The notes under the pieces: model-generated | What the model was told of the DNA's origin: nothing | The model's database searches: none | The model's input: the letters and a program-made list of their open reading frames with translations, nothing else | Shown here: positions 42,462 through 48,464 of the stretch, piece by piece | Numbering within the stretch: the stretch's first letter is position 1 | How the letters are laid out: the number at the start of each line of letters is the position of its first letter | Assembly (NCBI GenBank): GCA_963815115.1 | Contig: CAWFFN010000005.1 | Location: 1,120,001-1,184,000, forward strand | Length of the DNA stretch: 64,000 bases | DNA from: an uncultured delta proteobacterium | GTDB lineage: Bacteria; Desulfobacterota; Binatia; DP-6 | Reading direction: 5' to 3' | Program-made: the position numbers and the translations under genes

Positions 42462-44063
42462 TCAGAGCGTCCGCAGGAGGGTCTTCATGTCGGTGCGGAT
42501 CGACGTGCCCTGAAACTCGAGCGCCTGGCGCGTGGCCGCGGGCACGAGGTGACGCGCGACCAGCGACCGGACCCGGAAGCCGAACGAGGTCATCTTCCGG
42601 ATCGCCGCCTTCAGGCGGTGCGTCGCCTGCTTCTTCTTCGTCGCGGGGAGGCCTTCCGCCGAAACCTTCCGGTCGCGCGCCTTCGTCAGCGACGCCAGCA
42701 TCGAGTGCTGCGTGCGGCCGAGGTCGGTCGCCGCCTGCACCTGCGCGATGAGCGCGTCGAGGCGGCAGTCGATCGAGACGAACGTGGGCGCACGCGGCAC
42801 GTCGCACGATCCGGGGACGGTCGTCGTGGTGGTCGTCGTCGTGGGGGTGGTCGACGTCGTGGTTCTCATCGTGCCGGTCGTCGTGGTGGTCGTGACGATC
42901 GTCGTCGTCGTCGGCAGCGCCGCGCCGCCCTCGAAGGCGCCGACGTCACACTGTCCGGCGGGGCGGGAGACCCCGCGCTGGTCGACGCCGTCGACGGGTG
43001 CGCCGGCGCACGCGTCGGGGTCCCCGTGGTCGATCGCCGGGCTGCCCGCCAGCAGCGCGATCGTCTGCGTCGGGCCGCCGTTGTTCGCCGGTCCCGCGGG
43101 GTCGAGCACGGGGTTCGTGTCGCAGAACGAGGTGCCGCTGGTATCGGCGCATCCGGAGCCCGTGAAGCGGCAGGTGGCGCCGTCGTCGATGTTGTGGCCG
43201 CCGTCGTTGGGTGGAGAGCCGATGTTGCAATTCGCGTCCGGGGTGCCGGCGACGATCGTGTTCGTGAACGTCGCGTCGCCGCTCAGGAAGACGTTGGCGC
43301 CGTCGATGCCGGCGCTGTTGCCGCTGATCGTGCAGTTGACGACGGTCCCGTCGTCGCTGTCGTGATAGAGGCCGCCGCCGTCGCCGGTCGGCGCGCCGTT
43401 GCCGGCGATGGTGCTGTTCGCGATGGTGAGGGTGCCCATGTTGTAGATGCCGCCGCCGTTGCCGCCGCCCGCGGCGGTGTTGCCGCGGACCGTGCAGCGG
43501 CTGACCGTGAGGGTGCCGTTGCTGTAGATCGCACCGCCGTTGCCGCCGGCCGTGGTGCCGTTGCCGGTGAGCGTGCTGTCGGTGAGGGTGAGCGTTCCGG
43601 TGTTGTAGAGAGCGCCCCCGTTGCCGCCGGCCGTGGTGCTGTTGCCGCTGAACGTGCAGTGCGTCGCGGTCGTCGTCCCGTCGTTCGCGATGCCGCCGCC
43701 CGAGCCGGCGTCGCGGCCGTCGGCGATCGTCAGGTTCTGCAGCGTGAAGGCGATGCCCGAGTCCACCGTGAACACCTGCACGCTGTTGCCGCCGCTGATC
43801 GTGACCACGCCGCCGCCGTCGATGGTCGTGGGGGCGCTGATGTCCTTCGTGCCGGTGACGGTGATCGAGGCGCTGCCGCCGCAGGAGAACGTGACGCTGC
43901 CGTCGAAGCCGCCGCCGGCGGGTAGGCAGGCGTCCAGTGCCGCCTCGGTGCAGCTCGGGGCGGTGCCGGTGCCGACGAGGCAGGCCCGGGCGGCCGCGGG
44001 GAGGAGGAGCAGTGCGACGGCGAAAGCGAGACCCGAGATGCGGCGTGCGCGAGCGGTCAGCAT
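42462..44063 (-). CDS. Secreted beta-helix protein (GG[AG][IL]Y repeats, choice-of-anchor-Q-like domain, Thr linker, basic tail)
   Basis: Repeated GNGGALYN/GNGGAIYS/GNGGGIYN; NNGGPTQTIALLAGSPAIDHG..DQRG..CDVGAFE. Confidence 0.88.
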   Translation of the reverse strand: MLTARARRISGLAFAVALLLLPAAARACLVGTGTAPSCTEAALDACLPAGGGFDGSVTFSCGGSASITVTGTKDISAPTTIDGGGVVTISGGNSVQVFTVDSGIAFTLQNLTIADGRDAGSGGGIANDGTTTATHCTFSGNSTTAGGNGGALYNTGTLTLTDSTLTGNGTTAGGNGGAIYSNGTLTVSRCTVRGNTAAGGGNGGGIYNMGTLTIANSTIAGNGAPTGDGGGLYHDSDDGTVVNCTISGNSAGIDGANVFLSGDATFTNTIVAGTPDANCNIGSPPNDGGHNIDDGATCRFTGSGCADTSGTSFCDTNPVLDPAGPANNGGPTQTIALLAGSPAIDHGDPDACAGAPVDGVDQRGVSRPAGQCDVGAFEGGAALPTTTTIVTTTTTTGTMRTTTSTTPTTTTTTTTVPGSCDVPRAPTFVSIDCRLDALIAQVQAATDLGRTQHSMLASLTKARDRKVSAEGLPATKKKQATHRLKAAIRKMTSFGFRVRSLVARHLVPAATRQALEFQGTSIRTDMKTLLRTL

Positions 44064-44336
44064 CAGCGGCCATTCTGTATGGAGGATCGGCTGCGCGGGC
44101 AAGCCGCCCTTCCACCCGCCGCATACCGGCGATCAAAAGCGTCTTTCGCGGACGGTGGAAGCGGTGCTTGGTAGGATCGCGCGGACCATCCTCGACGGGT
44201 AGGCGGGCGCGCCACCCCGCGTGTGCTCGGGCCCCTGCAATAGAGCGCGCGTCCCGCTCGTCTCATGGGGCCAGACGTCGCGGTGGCGGGCGCCTGCCGC
44301 CCGCGAACCGTGACGCAATCTCTCCGAGGAGGTCCA

Positions 44337-44738
44337 ATGAAGCTTCGCACCACCCTCACCGCGCTGGCGTGTCTGACGGCCGGCGCAGGCATGGCGCACG
44401 CGGCGCAGACGATCGCCAGCGCGCCGCTGTGGACCGGCTTGAGCCACGCGGGCGCCTGCTACGTCCGGAACGTGGGAACGCGTCCGGTCTCGCTGACGGT
44501 GTCGCCGCTGATCAACTTCACGCCCGACTTCAGAACGTTTAGCTTCGAGAACTGCAACGAGGCGCCGCTGGCGCCCGGGCGCACCTGCGTGGGCCTGTTG
44601 AACGCTCTCGACGACGACGTGACCTTCGCCTGCTCCGCGGTCGTGAACGGAAGCGCGAAGAACGTACGCGGCAACGTCGAGATCCGCGAATCCGTCACGG
44701 GCGGGCTGCGGGTCATCGCCGCCGACGAGATGCGCTAG
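44337..44738 (+). CDS. Secreted hypothetical protein
   Basis: GAGGAGG RBS, signal peptide ending AHA-A, 4 Cys in the mature part. Confidence 0.75.
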   Translation: MKLRTTLTALACLTAGAGMAHAAQTIASAPLWTGLSHAGACYVRNVGTRPVSLTVSPLINFTPDFRTFSFENCNEAPLAPGRTCVGLLNALDDDVTFACSAVVNGSAKNVRGNVEIRESVTGGLRVIAADEMR

Positions 44739-44762: not shown

Positions 44763-45155
44763 ATGAGAACGTCCGTCGTCTCGACCGCCATCGCGTGCCT
44801 GCTGGCGCTCACCGGCAGTGCCCGCGCGTCTCAGCTCCTCGCCACCCCCGCGATCTTCGGGGCCTCCAGCCAGCGAAGCGCCCAGTGCAACCTGGGCAAC
44901 TTCGGTACCCGCGACATCCCGGTCACCGGCTTCGACATCGTCGACGAGTCCGGCAATGCCTTCCCGGTGAACCGGGGGTGCGGCAGCGCGATCCCGGCCG
45001 GCTTCATCTGCCAGATCTTCGCGCCCAGCATCCCTTCCGGCCAGGCCGTGGCCTGCACCGCGACCGTGTCGAACGGCGACAAGGTGCGGGGCACCTTGCT
45101 CCTGTTCGACAGCACCGGCACCGGCGTCCCGGTGCGGGCGCAGGCCCTTCGCTAG
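44763..45155 (+). CDS. Secreted hypothetical protein, probable paralog of the upstream gene
   Basis: AAGGAG RBS, signal peptide, similar Cys spacing and C.A.V....VRG ending. Confidence 0.75.
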   Translation: MRTSVVSTAIACLLALTGSARASQLLATPAIFGASSQRSAQCNLGNFGTRDIPVTGFDIVDESGNAFPVNRGCGSAIPAGFICQIFAPSIPSGQAVACTATVSNGDKVRGTLLLFDSTGTGVPVRAQALR

Positions 45156-45246: not shown

Positions 45247-45354
45247 GAGCCTGAAGGAGAAGGTGCTCCGGCCTCCCGCGTTGCGCGCGCCGCTCAGGCT
45301 GCCGTGATGGGCTTCGATGATCGAGCGGCGCATCGAGAGCCCCATGCCCTCGCC
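45247..45354 (-). pseudogene. Remnant of a histidine kinase HATPase C-terminus
   Basis: GEGMGLSMRRSIIEAHHGSL..RNAGGRSTFSFRL (G2 box and end). Confidence 0.65.
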
Positions 45355-45449
45355 CGCCCTTCAGATGGGACGCCGAGAGGCGATCGAGCAGCGAAAGACC
45401 GAGATCGCGAGTGCGAAGAAGCGGCGACGGGGTGGGAAGTACGTGGTCG

Positions 45450-45700
45450 AGGAGGCGGACGTGGACGGCGTGCCGCGCCTCTCCACGAAGTACGTCCGCA
45501 ACATCATCGTCGGCAGCTTCCGTGCGATCCTGCGTGACGCACTCGAGATCGACAGGATTCCGGTCCCGTTGAGACTCTCCGAGCTGTGCGTCGGCCTGAA
45601 GGGCGGCTGGGCGCACGAGGACGAGCATGAGCCCGATCCCGATCCGTTCACGCCGGCGGAACGCGACGCGATCCTCGAGTGGTTCCGAACGAAGATTCCG
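45450..45700 (+). pseudogene. Tyrosine integrase fragment (core-binding/linker region)
   Basis: LSTKYVRNIIVGSFRAILRDA...PDPFTPAERDAILEWF; no catalytic domain follows. Confidence 0.6.
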
Positions 45701-45704
45701 CCCG

Positions 45705-45845
45705 CTGGACGTGAAGGCGATCCGCCGCCAGCTTGGCGTGTCGCAGACCGCTTTCGCCGCGCTCATCAGTGTGCCGGTGGGAACGCTGCCCAACTGGGAG
45801 CAGGGGCGCCGGGTCCCTGACGGGTCAGGACGAGCGAGGGCCGCT
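45705..45845 (+). pseudogene. HigA/Xre-type HTH antitoxin fragment
   Basis: DVKAIRRQLGVSQTAFAALISVPVGTLPNWEQGRRVPDG with no own start. Confidence 0.7.
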
Positions 45846-45951
45846 TGTCGCCTTGACCAGGGGCTCGTCCCGCTCAGCTGCGATGCGCCCCCCAAATGGC
45901 CGTCGGTCCCGTTGGATATGCAGGTCGGGTTGGAGTGCCCCGAATCGCTCA

Positions 45952-45979
45952 TTGACTTAGTAAGCCAATGGCATAGAAT
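45952..45979 (+). promoter_or_regulatory. Sigma-70-type promoter, probably leaderless, with palindromic operator
   Basis: TTGACT-16-TAGAAT ending 6 bp before GTG 45986; GCCA-A-TGGC palindrome in the spacer. Confidence 0.6.
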
Positions 45980-45985
45980 GCGGCG

Positions 45986-46277
45986 GTGCGAGTAGAGTGG
46001 GACCCGGAGAAGGACCGCACGAACCGCGTCGAACACGGTCTCGCCCTCGATGAGGTCCGGATTCTCTTCGAGCGCGATATCGACCACCTGGTGATCCATG
46101 ACCAAGAGCACGGCGACGACGAGGACCGGGTCCTTGCCATCGGGCCAGTTGCGAGGGGAGTGGCACGGTGGCGTATGCGGACCGAAAGACGATGTCGTCC
46201 GCGTCATCAGCGCTCGCATGGCGACGCGGATCGAGGAAGAGGCGTTTTACAGGCGAGCGGGAGGCCGAAAGCGATGA
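45986..46277 (+). pseudogene. BrnT-family toxin, frameshifted
   Basis: VEWDPEK..N..HGL..EDR..AIG, then VVRVISARMAT..E..Y in another frame. Confidence 0.75.
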
Positions 46278-46604
46278 AGGACGAGATCAGGGAACTGACC
46301 GCCGCTGACTTCGAGCGTCCCTCGACGACTCCGCGATCGTTTGGTGCGCGGTGAGTTCAAGAGCGGTGAAGACGTAGCGGCTCTGCGTCGCTTCATCGGG
46401 CTGTCGCAAGAGACGTTCGCTCTGGCTCTGGGTATCAGCGCTTACACACTCCGTAACCGGGAGCAGGGTAGGCGCATGCCGGAAGGACCCGCCCTTGCGC
46501 TGCTGCGCATCGCCGCCCGGCACCCGAGAGTGTTCGTGAGAACCTCGCGCTGGCAGGGTGAGGGATGTCGGCCGATGAAGTCGACTGGATCTTGCGCTCG
46601 CTGA
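46274..46604 (+). pseudogene. Xre/HigA-type HTH antitoxin, frameshifted
   Basis: ATGA overlap; MKDEIRELTAADFER, then shifted DVAALRRFIGLSQETFA..EQGRRMPEGPALALLRIAARHP. Confidence 0.7.
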
Positions 46605-46665
46605 CGGGACTGAGCTGCCTCGCCTCGGCGTGTCGGAAGCTATTGACCCGCCGCGGAAGTCGAAA

Positions 46666-46780
46666 TGCGAGGAGGGGGACTTGACCCCCCTGGCAATCCC
46701 TGTGACTTCGAGGTTTTTCGGGAGCTTGTCGTGACGCTGCATGACGGGCCATGACGAGATCGGGTCCCTCGGCCCCGATC
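46666..46780. repeat. att-like repeat copy C: tRNA-Leu 3' end plus conserved arm
   Basis: TGCGAGGAGGGGGACTTGA identical to the tRNA 3' end; the next ~90 bp closely match 47634-47723. Confidence 0.9.
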
Positions 46781-46871
46781 TCACCGCGCCGCACCCACCT
46801 GCATGTGGCCCCGGCTGCTCGACGATCTATCTCGGGCCGTGTAGGTACGAAGTCGCCTCGGAGGACTAGCC

Positions 46872-47087
46872 ATGTTCGATCGCATCAGCTTCGACCCCCA
46901 CATCCTGCGGGGACGGGCGTGCATCCGCGGGATGCGCATCCCGGTGTCTGTCATCGTGGGGCAGATCGCGCACGGGGCTACCTTCGAGGAGATCCTGGAG
47001 GGGTATCCCGACCTCGAACGCGAGGACATTCAGCAGGCCATCGAGTATGCGGCTTGGCTGACCCAGGAGCAGGTGCAACTCTCGTAG
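46872..47087 (+). CDS. DUF433-family antitoxin
   Basis: RISFDPHIL.G.ACIRGMRIPV..EEIL..YPDLE.EDI..A..YAA; GGAGG RBS. Confidence 0.9.
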   Translation: MFDRISFDPHILRGRACIRGMRIPVSVIVGQIAHGATFEEILEGYPDLEREDIQQAIEYAAWLTQEQVQLS

Positions 47088-47096
47088 CCGGCCGTC

Positions 47097-47469
47097 GTGC
47101 GCTTCCTCGCCGACATGGGCGTCGATCAACGGGTCGTCGCCTGGCTGCGCGCGGCTGGCCACGATGCCGTCCACCTGCGCGACGAGGGACTGCACCGCCT
47201 TTCCGACGAAGCGATCTTCGACAAGGCGATCGCGGAAGGCCGAGTAGTCCTGACGTTCGACCTGGACTTCGGTGAGATCGCTGCCCTTGCGAGGGGACGG
47301 GTGGCGAGCGTCGTCTCCGACTGCCCGATACAAGATACTCTCGGTCATCGAGCGCCTTCAGGCAGTTCTCCCTGCATCGGCGGAGGCCCTGGCCAGCGGC
47401 GCGGTCGTCATCGTCGAGCCGGCGAGGCACCGGACACGCGCGCTGCCGAACGTGCGACCGGATCCCTGA
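47097..47469 (+). pseudogene. DUF5615 PIN-like toxin, frameshifted near 47310-47340
   Basis: MRFLADM..GHDAVH..D..I...EGRVVLTFDLDFG; the expected C-terminus (GAVVIVEP..R.R.LP) lies in another frame. Confidence 0.8.
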
Positions 47470-47607
47470 GCGCGCACGCTCCAACCGGCCAGCGAAGTTT
47501 GTTTCCGCACCGGTGATGAGCATTCGGAGAGCTGGATCGGCTCGAAACACAGGAGGGGGACAACCGCGTCCGAGGGCTGGAGACCCCGCCAAATCAGTAG
47601 CTTGACG

Positions 47608-47723
47608 AGTGCGAGGAGGGGGACTTGAACCCCTGAGAATCCCCGTGACTTCGAGGTCTTTCGGGAGCTTGTCGTGACGCTGCATGACGGCCTATGACGA
47701 GATCGGGTCCGTCGGACCCGATC
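47608..47723. repeat. att-like repeat copy B: tRNA-Leu 3' end plus conserved arm
   Basis: 26 bp identical to 48380-48405; the arm ends in the hairpin GATCGGGTCC-GTC-GGACCCGATC. Confidence 0.92.
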
Positions 47724-47754
47724 CGTGGTCGGCCTTGCTGGGTCGCGGACAGCG

Positions 47755-47988
47755 TCAGCCGGCACGCCGCATCGCGCGTGCGAGAATGTCATTGATCAGG
47801 GATTGGTACGGCATGCGGCGCTTAGCGGCCGTCGCTTTCAGGCGACTCAGCACCTCCGGGTCGACCCGGACCGAGATCGCGGTCCGCGCGACGCGCCCAA
47901 GGGGTGGCCGCCCGACCCGGCGCATGCTCGCGAGCTGCTCGTTGGACAACTCGGAGATGTCGCTGAAGTCGATCTTACGCTTCGGCAT
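47755..47988 (-). CDS. BrnA-family antitoxin
   Basis: IDFSDI.EL, GRPP, ISVRVDPEVL and PYQSLINDIL motifs. Confidence 0.88.
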   Translation of the reverse strand: MPKRKIDFSDISELSNEQLASMRRVGRPPLGRVARTAISVRVDPEVLSRLKATAAKRRMPYQSLINDILARAMRRAG

Positions 47989-48244
47989 ATTGGTTGCGCT
48001 CTTTCCGGCTGGCGAGGCGTGCACTGATGATCCGTACCATTGTGCCCCGCAGCGTGTAGGCGACTACGACGATGCGTCCCATGGTGCTGCGTGCAAGACG
48101 CAGCCTCCGGGCCTCGCGAGTAGAGTGGCGCAGATCAGTGCCGTCAAGACCGACGGGGTCGTCGAAAGCACTCGCAGCCTCTTCGAACGAGACACCATGT
48201 TTCGCGTAGTTGCTCCGCGCCTTCCCCTCATCCCACTCGAACAC
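47975..48244 (-). CDS. BrnT-family ribonuclease toxin
   Basis: FEWDEGKA.SN..KHGVSFEEA..F.DP...VRIISARLASRKER..Y. Confidence 0.92.
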   Translation of the reverse strand: MFEWDEGKARSNYAKHGVSFEEAASAFDDPVGLDGTDLRHSTREARRLRLARSTMGRIVVVAYTLRGTMVRIISARLASRKERNQYAEA

Positions 48245-48250
48245 ACCGAG

Positions 48251-48266
48251 TTTCGTATATACGAAA
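48251..48266. promoter_or_regulatory. Perfect 16-bp palindrome, putative BrnA operator
   Basis: TTTCGTATATACGAAA directly upstream of brnT. Confidence 0.65.
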
Positions 48267-48381
48267 GGTCGGACGGCTGCAAGTGCTCGCGAGCCGACGA
48301 TTCGGACAGGTCTTCACTCTGGTGGCCAGCGTCGGAGAGCTCGTTGACCGAGGTGCGCCAATGCGTGTGGTCGGTCAGAAG

Positions 48382-48464
48382 TGCGAGGAGGGGGACTTGA
48401 ACCCCCACGGGTGTTACCCCACTAGCCCCTCAAACTAGCGCGTCTGCCATTCCGCCATCCTCGC
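48382..48464 (-). tRNA. tRNA-Leu(GAG), CCA not encoded
   Basis: GCGAGGATGGCGGAATGGCAGACGCGCTAGTTTGAGGGGCTAGTGGGGTAACACCCGTGGGGGTTCAAGTCCCCCTCCTCGCA; cloverleaf with long variable arm. Confidence 0.96.

Follow-up and report, generated by a model that had tools for sequence, protein, structure and literature searches.

A tRNA-Leu(GAG)-anchored stack of att-flanked toxin-antitoxin units in a genome of the Binatia, probably left by repeated integration and decay

A short string of toxin-antitoxin genes beside tRNA-Leu(GAG) in the genome of an uncultured delta proteobacterium (Desulfobacterota, Binatia, DP-6; GCA_963815115.1, here G000) raises the question of how units of less than one kilobase, each bounded by copies of a tRNA 3' end and free of any recombinase gene, came to be stacked at one chromosomal site. 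The stretch of DNA analysed, referred to as the window, comprises 64,000 nucleotides of contig CAWFFN010000005.1 (positions 1,120,001 to 1,184,000), and all coordinates without a contig name refer to it. Repeated integration by a defined family of tyrosine integrases has produced this compact locus, which is orphaned at present. Among the mechanisms that could have produced it, the best supported, and probably the correct one, is tandem accretion of integrative elements followed by their decay to toxin-antitoxin remnants that are flanked by attachment (att) sites and resemble cis-mobilisable elements (CIMEs).

The tRNA in question, tRNA-Leu(gag), is the sole tRNA called by ARAGORN in the window; it is intact and located at 48381..48464 on the minus strand (Rfam tRNA, 51.6 bits). 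Its last 26 nucleotides, which correspond to the T arm and the acceptor 3' strand, form a core sequence that occurs three times in direct orientation (+): at the tRNA itself (core copy 1, 48380-48405), where it would represent the regenerated attachment site, as an exact copy at 47608..47633 (core copy 2), and with two mismatches in 26 positions at 46664..46689 (core copy 3). A first-pass annotation, made from the letters of the sequence, had reported three direct occurrences of the tRNA 3' end with a single mismatch in the third; this is borne out, the single mismatch applying to 46666-46689 and the second falling within the full 26 nucleotides. The 26-mer has three matches in the window compared with none in 100 shuffles. 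Start-to-start spacing of the cores is 772 bp for unit 1, which adjoins the tRNA, and 944 bp for unit 2, as had been proposed. Both units are thus bounded by direct repeats of the 3' part of the tRNA in tRNA orientation, as in a tRNA-integrated island or CIME-type remnant. When up to eight mismatches were allowed throughout the window, no fourth core was found to the left of 45317, so that the island has no defined left end.

The position of the cores coincides with a break in conserved gene order. Synteny with two genomes of the same genus (G001 and G003) extends through gap, pgk, tpiA and secG to 48382 and ends exactly there, while further leftward the DNA matches to the genus are spread across several contigs and cease near 41.6 kb. 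The GC content is 0.62-0.66 over 45.4-48.4 kb, compared with 0.70-0.76 in the flanking housekeeping genes. The end of synteny at the core and the dip in GC content, together with the shared arm and the integrase fragment described below, count in favour of accretion and decay. In G003, the tRNA-Leu(gag) core is exactly where contig C14 (L059) stops, and an assembly would break at this point if repeated att copies came next.

Both extra cores carry an arm of about 94 nucleotides directly on their tRNA-ward side (46687-46780 versus 47630-47723, 94 nucleotides at 91% identity), which agrees with the arm of about 90 bp that had been noticed in both units. The arm of unit 1 (47634..47723, +; 91% identical to 46690-46780) consists in this order of GTGACT, TTTCGGG, the hexamers GTGACG, ATGACG and ATGACG spaced by four nucleotides and hence in 10-bp phase, and a GC hairpin of 23 nucleotides, GATCGGGTCCGTCGGACCCGATC. 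In window orientation around 20 nucleotides separate the core from TTTCGGG. The arm of unit 2 (46690..46782, +) follows the same design. Self-similarity of the unit 1 arm reaches 12 of 16 positions at a period of 10 as opposed to 6-8 at other periods, and the three phased repeats are probably arm-type integrase sites.

In the entire 6.9-Mb genome the G000-type arm occurs at these two places only. When a 118-nucleotide query of core plus arm was compared with 100 relatives, the arm was matched in G000 alone apart from one weak match of 74% in G093. The design is far more widespread than this particular sequence. Of the 31 arms located at non-tRNA cores in 13 genomes, 28.5 are most self-similar at a period of 10, as scored with three windows at fixed spacing; one further arm, that of G076, was filtered out beforehand and read by eye. 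Arms of the window design differ in sequence between lineages and are alike within one genome, where it is the cargo that differs. A second kind of core copy, in which the repeat takes in more of the tRNA body and, in some cases, part of the downstream flank (G107, G181, G029 and G190), belongs to other element types. Pattern searches were also conducted: a triple-hexamer pattern matched 111 stretches of the genome contigs, none with a core in the expected place, and these are regarded as chance matches; a core-gap-hexamer pattern had no match in metagenome contigs, and a looser hexamer pattern matched at least 119 stretches, none with a core alongside among the matches listed.

Unit 1 (47634..48379) is composed of the arm, brnA and brnT, and a 135-nucleotide spacer leading to core copy 1. 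The BrnT-type RNase toxin gene (47975..48244, -; 89 amino acids, full length) matches PF04365 over profile positions 1-77 of 77 (E 1.6e-23), and the overlapping 89-amino acid open reading frame (ORF) for a BrnA-type antitoxin (47755..48024, -) matches PF14384 over positions 1-68 of 68 (E 6.6e-11). With 83.2 bits (cut-off 34.5) and 42.9 bits (cut-off 26.1), respectively, both exceed the curated thresholds, and two adjacent small genes with both profiles are predicted to constitute a BrnT/BrnA type II toxin-antitoxin system. In unit 2 (46690..47607) the arm is followed by a DUF433 gene, a truncated DUF5615 gene and a spacer. The DUF433 gene (46872..47087, +; 71 amino acids, PF04255, E 1.1e-24) is full length and encodes the putative antitoxin partner. 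The DUF5615/PIN-like gene (47097..47516, +; PF18480, E 2.3e-20) encodes a putative toxin which is recognisable only to 47315: the match covers positions 1-72 of 110 of the profile, the remainder of the ORF does not resemble the family, and tblastn with two full-length DUF5615 proteins from relatives likewise ends at 47315 (residue 73 of the G036 protein). The partial profile and the end of the tblastn match indicate that this toxin is truncated or degraded, and unit 2 therefore lacks a pair in which both genes are full length. A frameshift was considered as the cause of the aberrant C-terminus and rejected, as no frame has significant similarity.

The proposal of one toxin-antitoxin pair and no recombinase per unit thus stands with the qualification that one of the pairs is damaged. 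There is no match to PF00589 anywhere in the window, and Pfam detects no integrase or transfer gene inside the units among the 12 ORFs of the region. Searches by tblastn with four integrases of the family discussed below match, at this locus, only a fragment at 45452-45733 and residues encoded by the core, and in unit 1 no similarity extends beyond the latter. A suggested role as a defence module is not upheld, since no PADLOC defence-system model matches the cargo apart from a weak match to a helix-turn-helix (HTH) protein; NCBIfam adds no useful names.

To the left of core copy 3 lies a decayed third segment (45317..46663, +). Its contents are as had been annotated, namely a BrnT-like gene with an HTH gene, a further HTH fragment and an integrase fragment. 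The internal integrase fragment (aligned at 45479-45733, +) is detected by BLASTP and has no Pfam match. It is followed by an HTH fragment of 39 amino acids (45708-45824), a promoter-like site (45952-45979), a BrnT-like start (45986-46140; E 1.7e-7, 31.9 bits and hence below the cut-off of 34.5, profile positions 1-51 of 77) and an HTH/MqsA-like ORF (46341-46604) with which the HTH fragment shares 51% identity. In BLASTP comparisons the integrase fragment is 43% identical over 72 amino acids to the enzyme of G005 (E 3e-11) and 35% identical to that of G076 (E 3e-8). It corresponds to approximately residues 153-215 of the 445 residues of the G005 enzyme, and the catalytic domain is therefore missing. 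Both its side relative to core copy 3 and its orientation match those of the integrases in relatives. A genome search of G000 identified no intact integrase of this family and three remnants only.

Some neighbouring features may be recorded here. The region that separates the array from the last stretch of DNA in common with the genus encodes a 546-amino acid beta-helix protein (42462-44102, -), which has a choice-of-anchor Q domain and a tail rich in Thr and Pro, and two small proteins that lack any family match (44265-44738 and 44763-45155); beta-helix proteins are also found as cargo in units of G135 and G160. Elsewhere in G000, orphan copies of the tRNA-Leu(gag) core are present far from any tRNA-Leu gene (C7:896397-900075 and C8:78060-78085). 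The copy at C7:900050 is exact and is followed by an arm that contains GGGCGAGAAC repeats as well as a hairpin. At a distance of 3.65 kb there is a second, degenerate core, and a beta-lactamase-family gene and two genes with Lcl_C domains are located between the two.

The enzyme responsible for such sites can be recognised in relatives. A search with the Phage_integrase profile in five genomes with long core spacings yielded weak matches that immediately adjoin the tRNA-Leu(gag) core in G012, G076 and G081; the open frames there, of 430-627 amino acids, read in the direction of the tRNA and extend into the core itself. The G076 integrase has 475 amino acids, while that of G012 is disrupted by a transposase-like ORF. 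Intact integrases with Arm-DNA-bind_2, SAM_3 and catalytic (Phage_integrase) domains are present at the tRNA-Leu(gag) core of G065 (459 amino acids) and G005 (445 amino acids). The latter genome belongs to the same family as the window and harbours an intact autonomous element at tRNA-Leu(gag) (C45, L062, 5887-10273), in which the integrase gene overlaps the tRNA 3' end and is followed by genes for an HTH protein, an AAA_25 ATPase and a DUF7146-Toprim primase. Members of this cognate integrase family are about 445-475 amino acids long and sit at the tRNA-near end of islands of 12-19 kb. At the far junctions of the islands in G076 (19 kb), G012 (11.8 kb), G068 and G147 the phased-repeat arm is found, which identifies it as the attachment-site arm at the far end of elements that this integrase family mobilises. 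These integrase-bearing islands support the annotation's view of the repeats as att copies of a tRNA-targeting tyrosine integrase.

Decay of such elements has also left traces. C-terminal integrase remnants of about 60-115 amino acids abut cores in G241, G135 and G105 according to tblastn with the four family integrases, and with another revealed by Pfam in G135 such remnants are present in two units of that genome. Remnants of this kind in the larger units are what would be expected of deletion products. Candidate remnants beside the tRNA in G093 and G245 were rejected, their matches consisting almost wholly of core-encoded residues. Full-length integrases of the family are encoded elsewhere in the genomes of G245, G135 and G036, and none was found in G093 or G160 with the query used.

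Taken together, accretion and decay would have proceeded as follows. The 26-nucleotide 3' end of tRNA-Leu(GAG) would serve as the chromosomal attachment site of a class-wide tyrosine integrase family of about 445-475 amino acids, whose elements integrate such that the integrase gene runs into the tRNA-near core and the far end brings in an arm of about 100 nucleotides with three 10-bp-phased repeats and a hairpin. Each integration would regenerate the tRNA, so that later elements could insert at the same place and push older ones outward. Three such events would be visible in G000, the oldest being the wreck with the internal integrase fragment, and the two younger ones having been reduced, presumably by deletion, to arm, toxin-antitoxin operon and core. 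The toxin-antitoxin pairs may have survived by resisting their own loss. As both junction sites have been kept the units are CIME-like, and they could be excised or carried along only upon arrival of a cognate element.

Whether units of this family still move can be judged in part from a sister site in the same assembly. The G000 regions C6:794-21266 and C7:1187-14982 share 13.7 kb at 99.0% identity, and the point at which they part is exactly the end of the 3' core of tRNA-Leu(cag). From there C7 goes on into the tRNA body and C6 into an arm of three 10-bp repeats and a hairpin, followed by 6.7 kb of cargo (a cyclase, a GDSL lipase, a RidA fragment and a cupin). The tRNA-Leu(cag) core is abutted by C-terminal pieces of integrases that contain internal stops. 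C6 and C7 are occupied and unoccupied forms of the sister attachment site, which implies that this population has very recently acquired or lost units of this element family. Sequencing reads are less informative. They were accessed as Logan contigs of 150-400 nucleotides at depths of 2-6, the best run holding a fraction of 0.30 of the sampled words; no joint of a unit border, circle junction or empty site was seen in them, and the cover is too thin to count either way. One metagenome contig of 254 nucleotides (depth 2.8) is identical to 48225-48405 and then extends into 73 nucleotides that do not resemble the tRNA body, which hints weakly at an additional insertion in a strain that co-occurs. 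A second low-depth contig from another study carries the arm at 91% identity with a cargo side unlike the window, and one low-depth contig joins 47231 to 48058 with five extra letters, which is not at the att borders.

The arrangement recurs across the class. A 23-nucleotide core (at most one mismatch) is present in 249 of 401 genomes, five of them unpublished and counted in this tally only, and about 28 genomes have two or more cores on one strand according to a reading of the tally table. Other families likewise have small units without an integrase at secG-tRNA-Leu(gag), with other cargo, and the recurrent design comprises the core, an arm of about 100 nucleotides and a small cargo that includes HigBA, MazEF and ParE/ribbon-helix-helix (RHH) types of toxin-antitoxin systems. 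G036 has a 911-bp unit with an intact DUF433/DUF5615 pair and a 981-bp unit; G093 has a 1010-bp unit with HigB/HTH, followed by BrnA and a BrnT fragment; and G245 has a 2.0-kb unit with RHH/MazF, followed by DUF5615/DUF433. In G160 the units measure 11.7 kb, 1.4 kb and 3.3 kb, the last with a ParE/RHH pair beside the would-be arm position of a core copy that lacks the canonical phased repeats.

The largest array belongs to G135, which has 16 core copies at up to two mismatches. Fifteen of these, of a variant type (GAGCGGG), lie on three contigs (C449, C220 and C149; L043, L044 and L045), most with near-identical arms, and bound 12 units of 0.9-7.6 kb. Each unit holds one to three genes that are unrelated between units, and the cargo includes RHH, PIN/FitA and Phd genes, cyclases, glutathione S-transferase, P450 and hydrolases. 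Approximately 9 of the 15 cores have a stem-loop within about 25 nucleotides on their tRNA-near side. In G160, an 802-nucleotide repeat of 93% identity (C49, L046; 1597-2398 and 14708-15509) starts right at the core and forms the tRNA-near side of two units; it has neither a Pfam match nor similarity to integrases and may be a shared unit backbone. Toxin-antitoxin units are nevertheless not the rule at this site: in 27 further, unselected loci the gene next to the tRNA is mostly ordinary and variable, with an intact integrase in one and a toxin-antitoxin pair in none, so that mini-units constitute the minority state of a general hotspot.

Several observations weigh against accretion and decay. 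None of the six units of 0.77-1.0 kb that contain only a toxin-antitoxin pair (units 1 and 2 of the window, two in G036 and one each in G093 and G135) has an integrase scar detectable by tblastn, which means that random deletion must have trimmed each of them cleanly while keeping both cores. In G135 integrase traces are found in only 2 of the 12 bounded units, and many independent clean decays would be needed. The four annotated island far ends (G076, G081, G012 and G068) have no toxin-antitoxin pair next to the arm, and the presumed parent arrangement is thus not seen in those islands. Lastly, identity among the pairs at this tRNA in G000, G036 and G245 reaches only 41-49% for the DUF433 and 26-38% for the DUF5615 proteins, compared with 62% for TpiA of G000 and G245. 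Such values are compatible neither with a recently shared cassette nor with plain vertical inheritance.

The absence of scars would be accounted for more readily if the units were cassettes from the outset, as the annotation had supposed when it described them as minimal and non-autonomous. In such a system the arm and the tRNA-tail core, together about 125 nucleotides, would act like the attC site of an integron and define non-autonomous cassettes of one to three genes, which a cognate integrase acting in trans would excise as circles, insert at the tRNA and build into arrays. This is an unlikely alternative, albeit one with several facts on its side. The integrase-less unit design is fixed while the cargo varies across families (G036, G093, G245, G160 and G135), and the arms are alike within a genome that holds different cargo. 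Full-length family integrases reside elsewhere in three of the genomes concerned. The ParE/RHH pair is 76.7% identical at the DNA level between G135 and G160, which belong to different families, although the tpiA-secG DNA of G160 is only about 65% identical to that of G093, a genus-mate of G135. However, nothing shows mobilisation in trans: the cognate integrase persists in G000 only as remnants and was not found in G093 and G160 with the query used, and no circle or empty-site joint appears in the reads, albeit at a cover of only 2-6 fold in short contigs. The tRNA-near sides of the three cores in G000 have no convincing sequence in common, yet the integrase possesses an arm-binding domain, and the searches described above did not find the exact arm in genomes of other species or in metagenome contigs. 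The cargo is present in both orientations with promoter-like regions of its own, unlike integron cassettes. The integrase remnants against several cores demonstrate that decay of autonomous elements does occur in these arrays. The annotation itself had held that cassettes would be untenable if relatives carried large integrase-bearing islands with these arms, the units being deletion products without circles or independent gain and loss. One half of this picture is found, in that relatives carry integrase islands of 12-19 kb with the same arm design, and larger units with integrase C-terminal remnants.

A broader version of this idea, in which the whole arrangement is an integron-like, tRNA-anchored capture system assembled from other parts, is quite improbable. 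A primase-bearing element such as that of G005 would supply the arm-binding integrase in trans and toxin-antitoxin cassettes would stabilise the stack; it is just as improbable that the window is a small, currently orphaned array of such a system and G135, with its 16 cores, a large one. That the repeats are not attachment sites at all but a regulatory, terminator or small-RNA element or a local duplication, spread by homologous recombination or slippage, is highly implausible and largely refuted: the GC hairpin about 30 nucleotides after the brnA stop could terminate unit 1, but that of unit 2 is upstream of its cargo, the arm has no Rfam family and no terminator-like site in a consensus scan, the repeat begins exactly at the tRNA T-stem where synteny with relatives breaks, islands with an integrase gene have this design at their far end, and the unrelated cargo between the repeats excludes a tandem duplication.

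The significance of the locus depends on which of these accounts is correct. If the units are only decayed remnants, as accretion and decay would have it, they provide a clean, well-dated example of island building at tRNA hotspots and explain the occurrence of toxin-antitoxin pairs as orphan "islets" next to tRNA genes, which is useful for annotation. If they are cassettes, they would represent a second, independently evolved integron-like capture system whose parts are defined and testable, namely the 26-nucleotide core, the RTGACG arm repeats and an integrase family known from relatives.

Among known systems, integrons share several features with the array. Toxin-antitoxin cassettes are common in large chromosomal integrons, in which IntI acts on attC sites that are imperfect palindromes, and clusters of attC sites lacking an integrase are known as CALINs. 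Like these, the locus is a string of small units that each end in a module of about 100-125 nucleotides, with no recombinase in the array. However, the module is not of attC type and is composed of a tRNA tail, three direct 10-bp-phased repeats and a 23-nucleotide hairpin; there is no IntI with attI and Pc, since the window contains no integrase and the cognate family is of the arm-binding phage type; and the cargo lies in both orientations with its own promoter-like regions. The pdif modules of Acinetobacter plasmids, as far as the available descriptions go, are also small, bounded by short sites and shuffled among replicons, and some encode brnT/brnA or higB/higA-type pairs. The pdif sites are 28-bp XerC/XerD sites in alternating orientation, located on plasmids and served by the host Xer system, whereas those of the window are not Xer sites but direct 26-nucleotide repeats of a tRNA T arm and acceptor on the chromosome. 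The continuation of the integrase frame through the core in G076, G012 and G081 is reminiscent of IntP/attP of myxophage Mx8, where the integrase frame reportedly runs into the attachment core such that integration alters its C-terminus; Mx8 is, however, said to be a complete phage at another tRNA gene.

Arrays of this composition are readily overlooked. According to the available text on Islander (PMC4383910), tandem arrays are counted only if each member has its own integrase, and arrays like this one would thereby be missed. Accretion, CIMEs and the outward pushing of older elements have all been published, while no description of units that contain only toxin-antitoxin genes at a tRNA was found in the open-access literature searched. 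The accessible part of the work on ICESt1 and ICESt3 of Streptococcus thermophilus (PMC5704250) describes tandem accretion and CIMEs, which have lost the integration genes and kept attL and attR. The window units resemble CIMEs in having no integration or transfer genes and in possessing attL- and attR-type sites at a tRNA 3' end, and they are stacked at a regenerated target together with a decayed integrase-bearing member. They are far smaller (0.77-0.94 kb), contain a toxin-antitoxin operon only, and their cis-mobilisation is putative; there are no conjugation genes, and the autonomous relative in G005 has a primase/helicase module instead. The tycheposons of Prochlorococcus, so far as the accessible text covers them (bioRxiv 10.1101/2020.12.28.424599), are similar tyrosine-recombinase elements that integrate successively at tRNA genes, where later arrivals push older ones outward and earlier events can be recognised by broken integrases and extra partial tRNAs. 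The G005 element likewise joins a recombinase with a primase and a helicase-type ATPase. The elements described here differ from tycheposons in belonging to another phylum and presumably another integrase lineage, in their conserved far arm with three phased repeats and in a cargo dominated by toxin-antitoxin systems.

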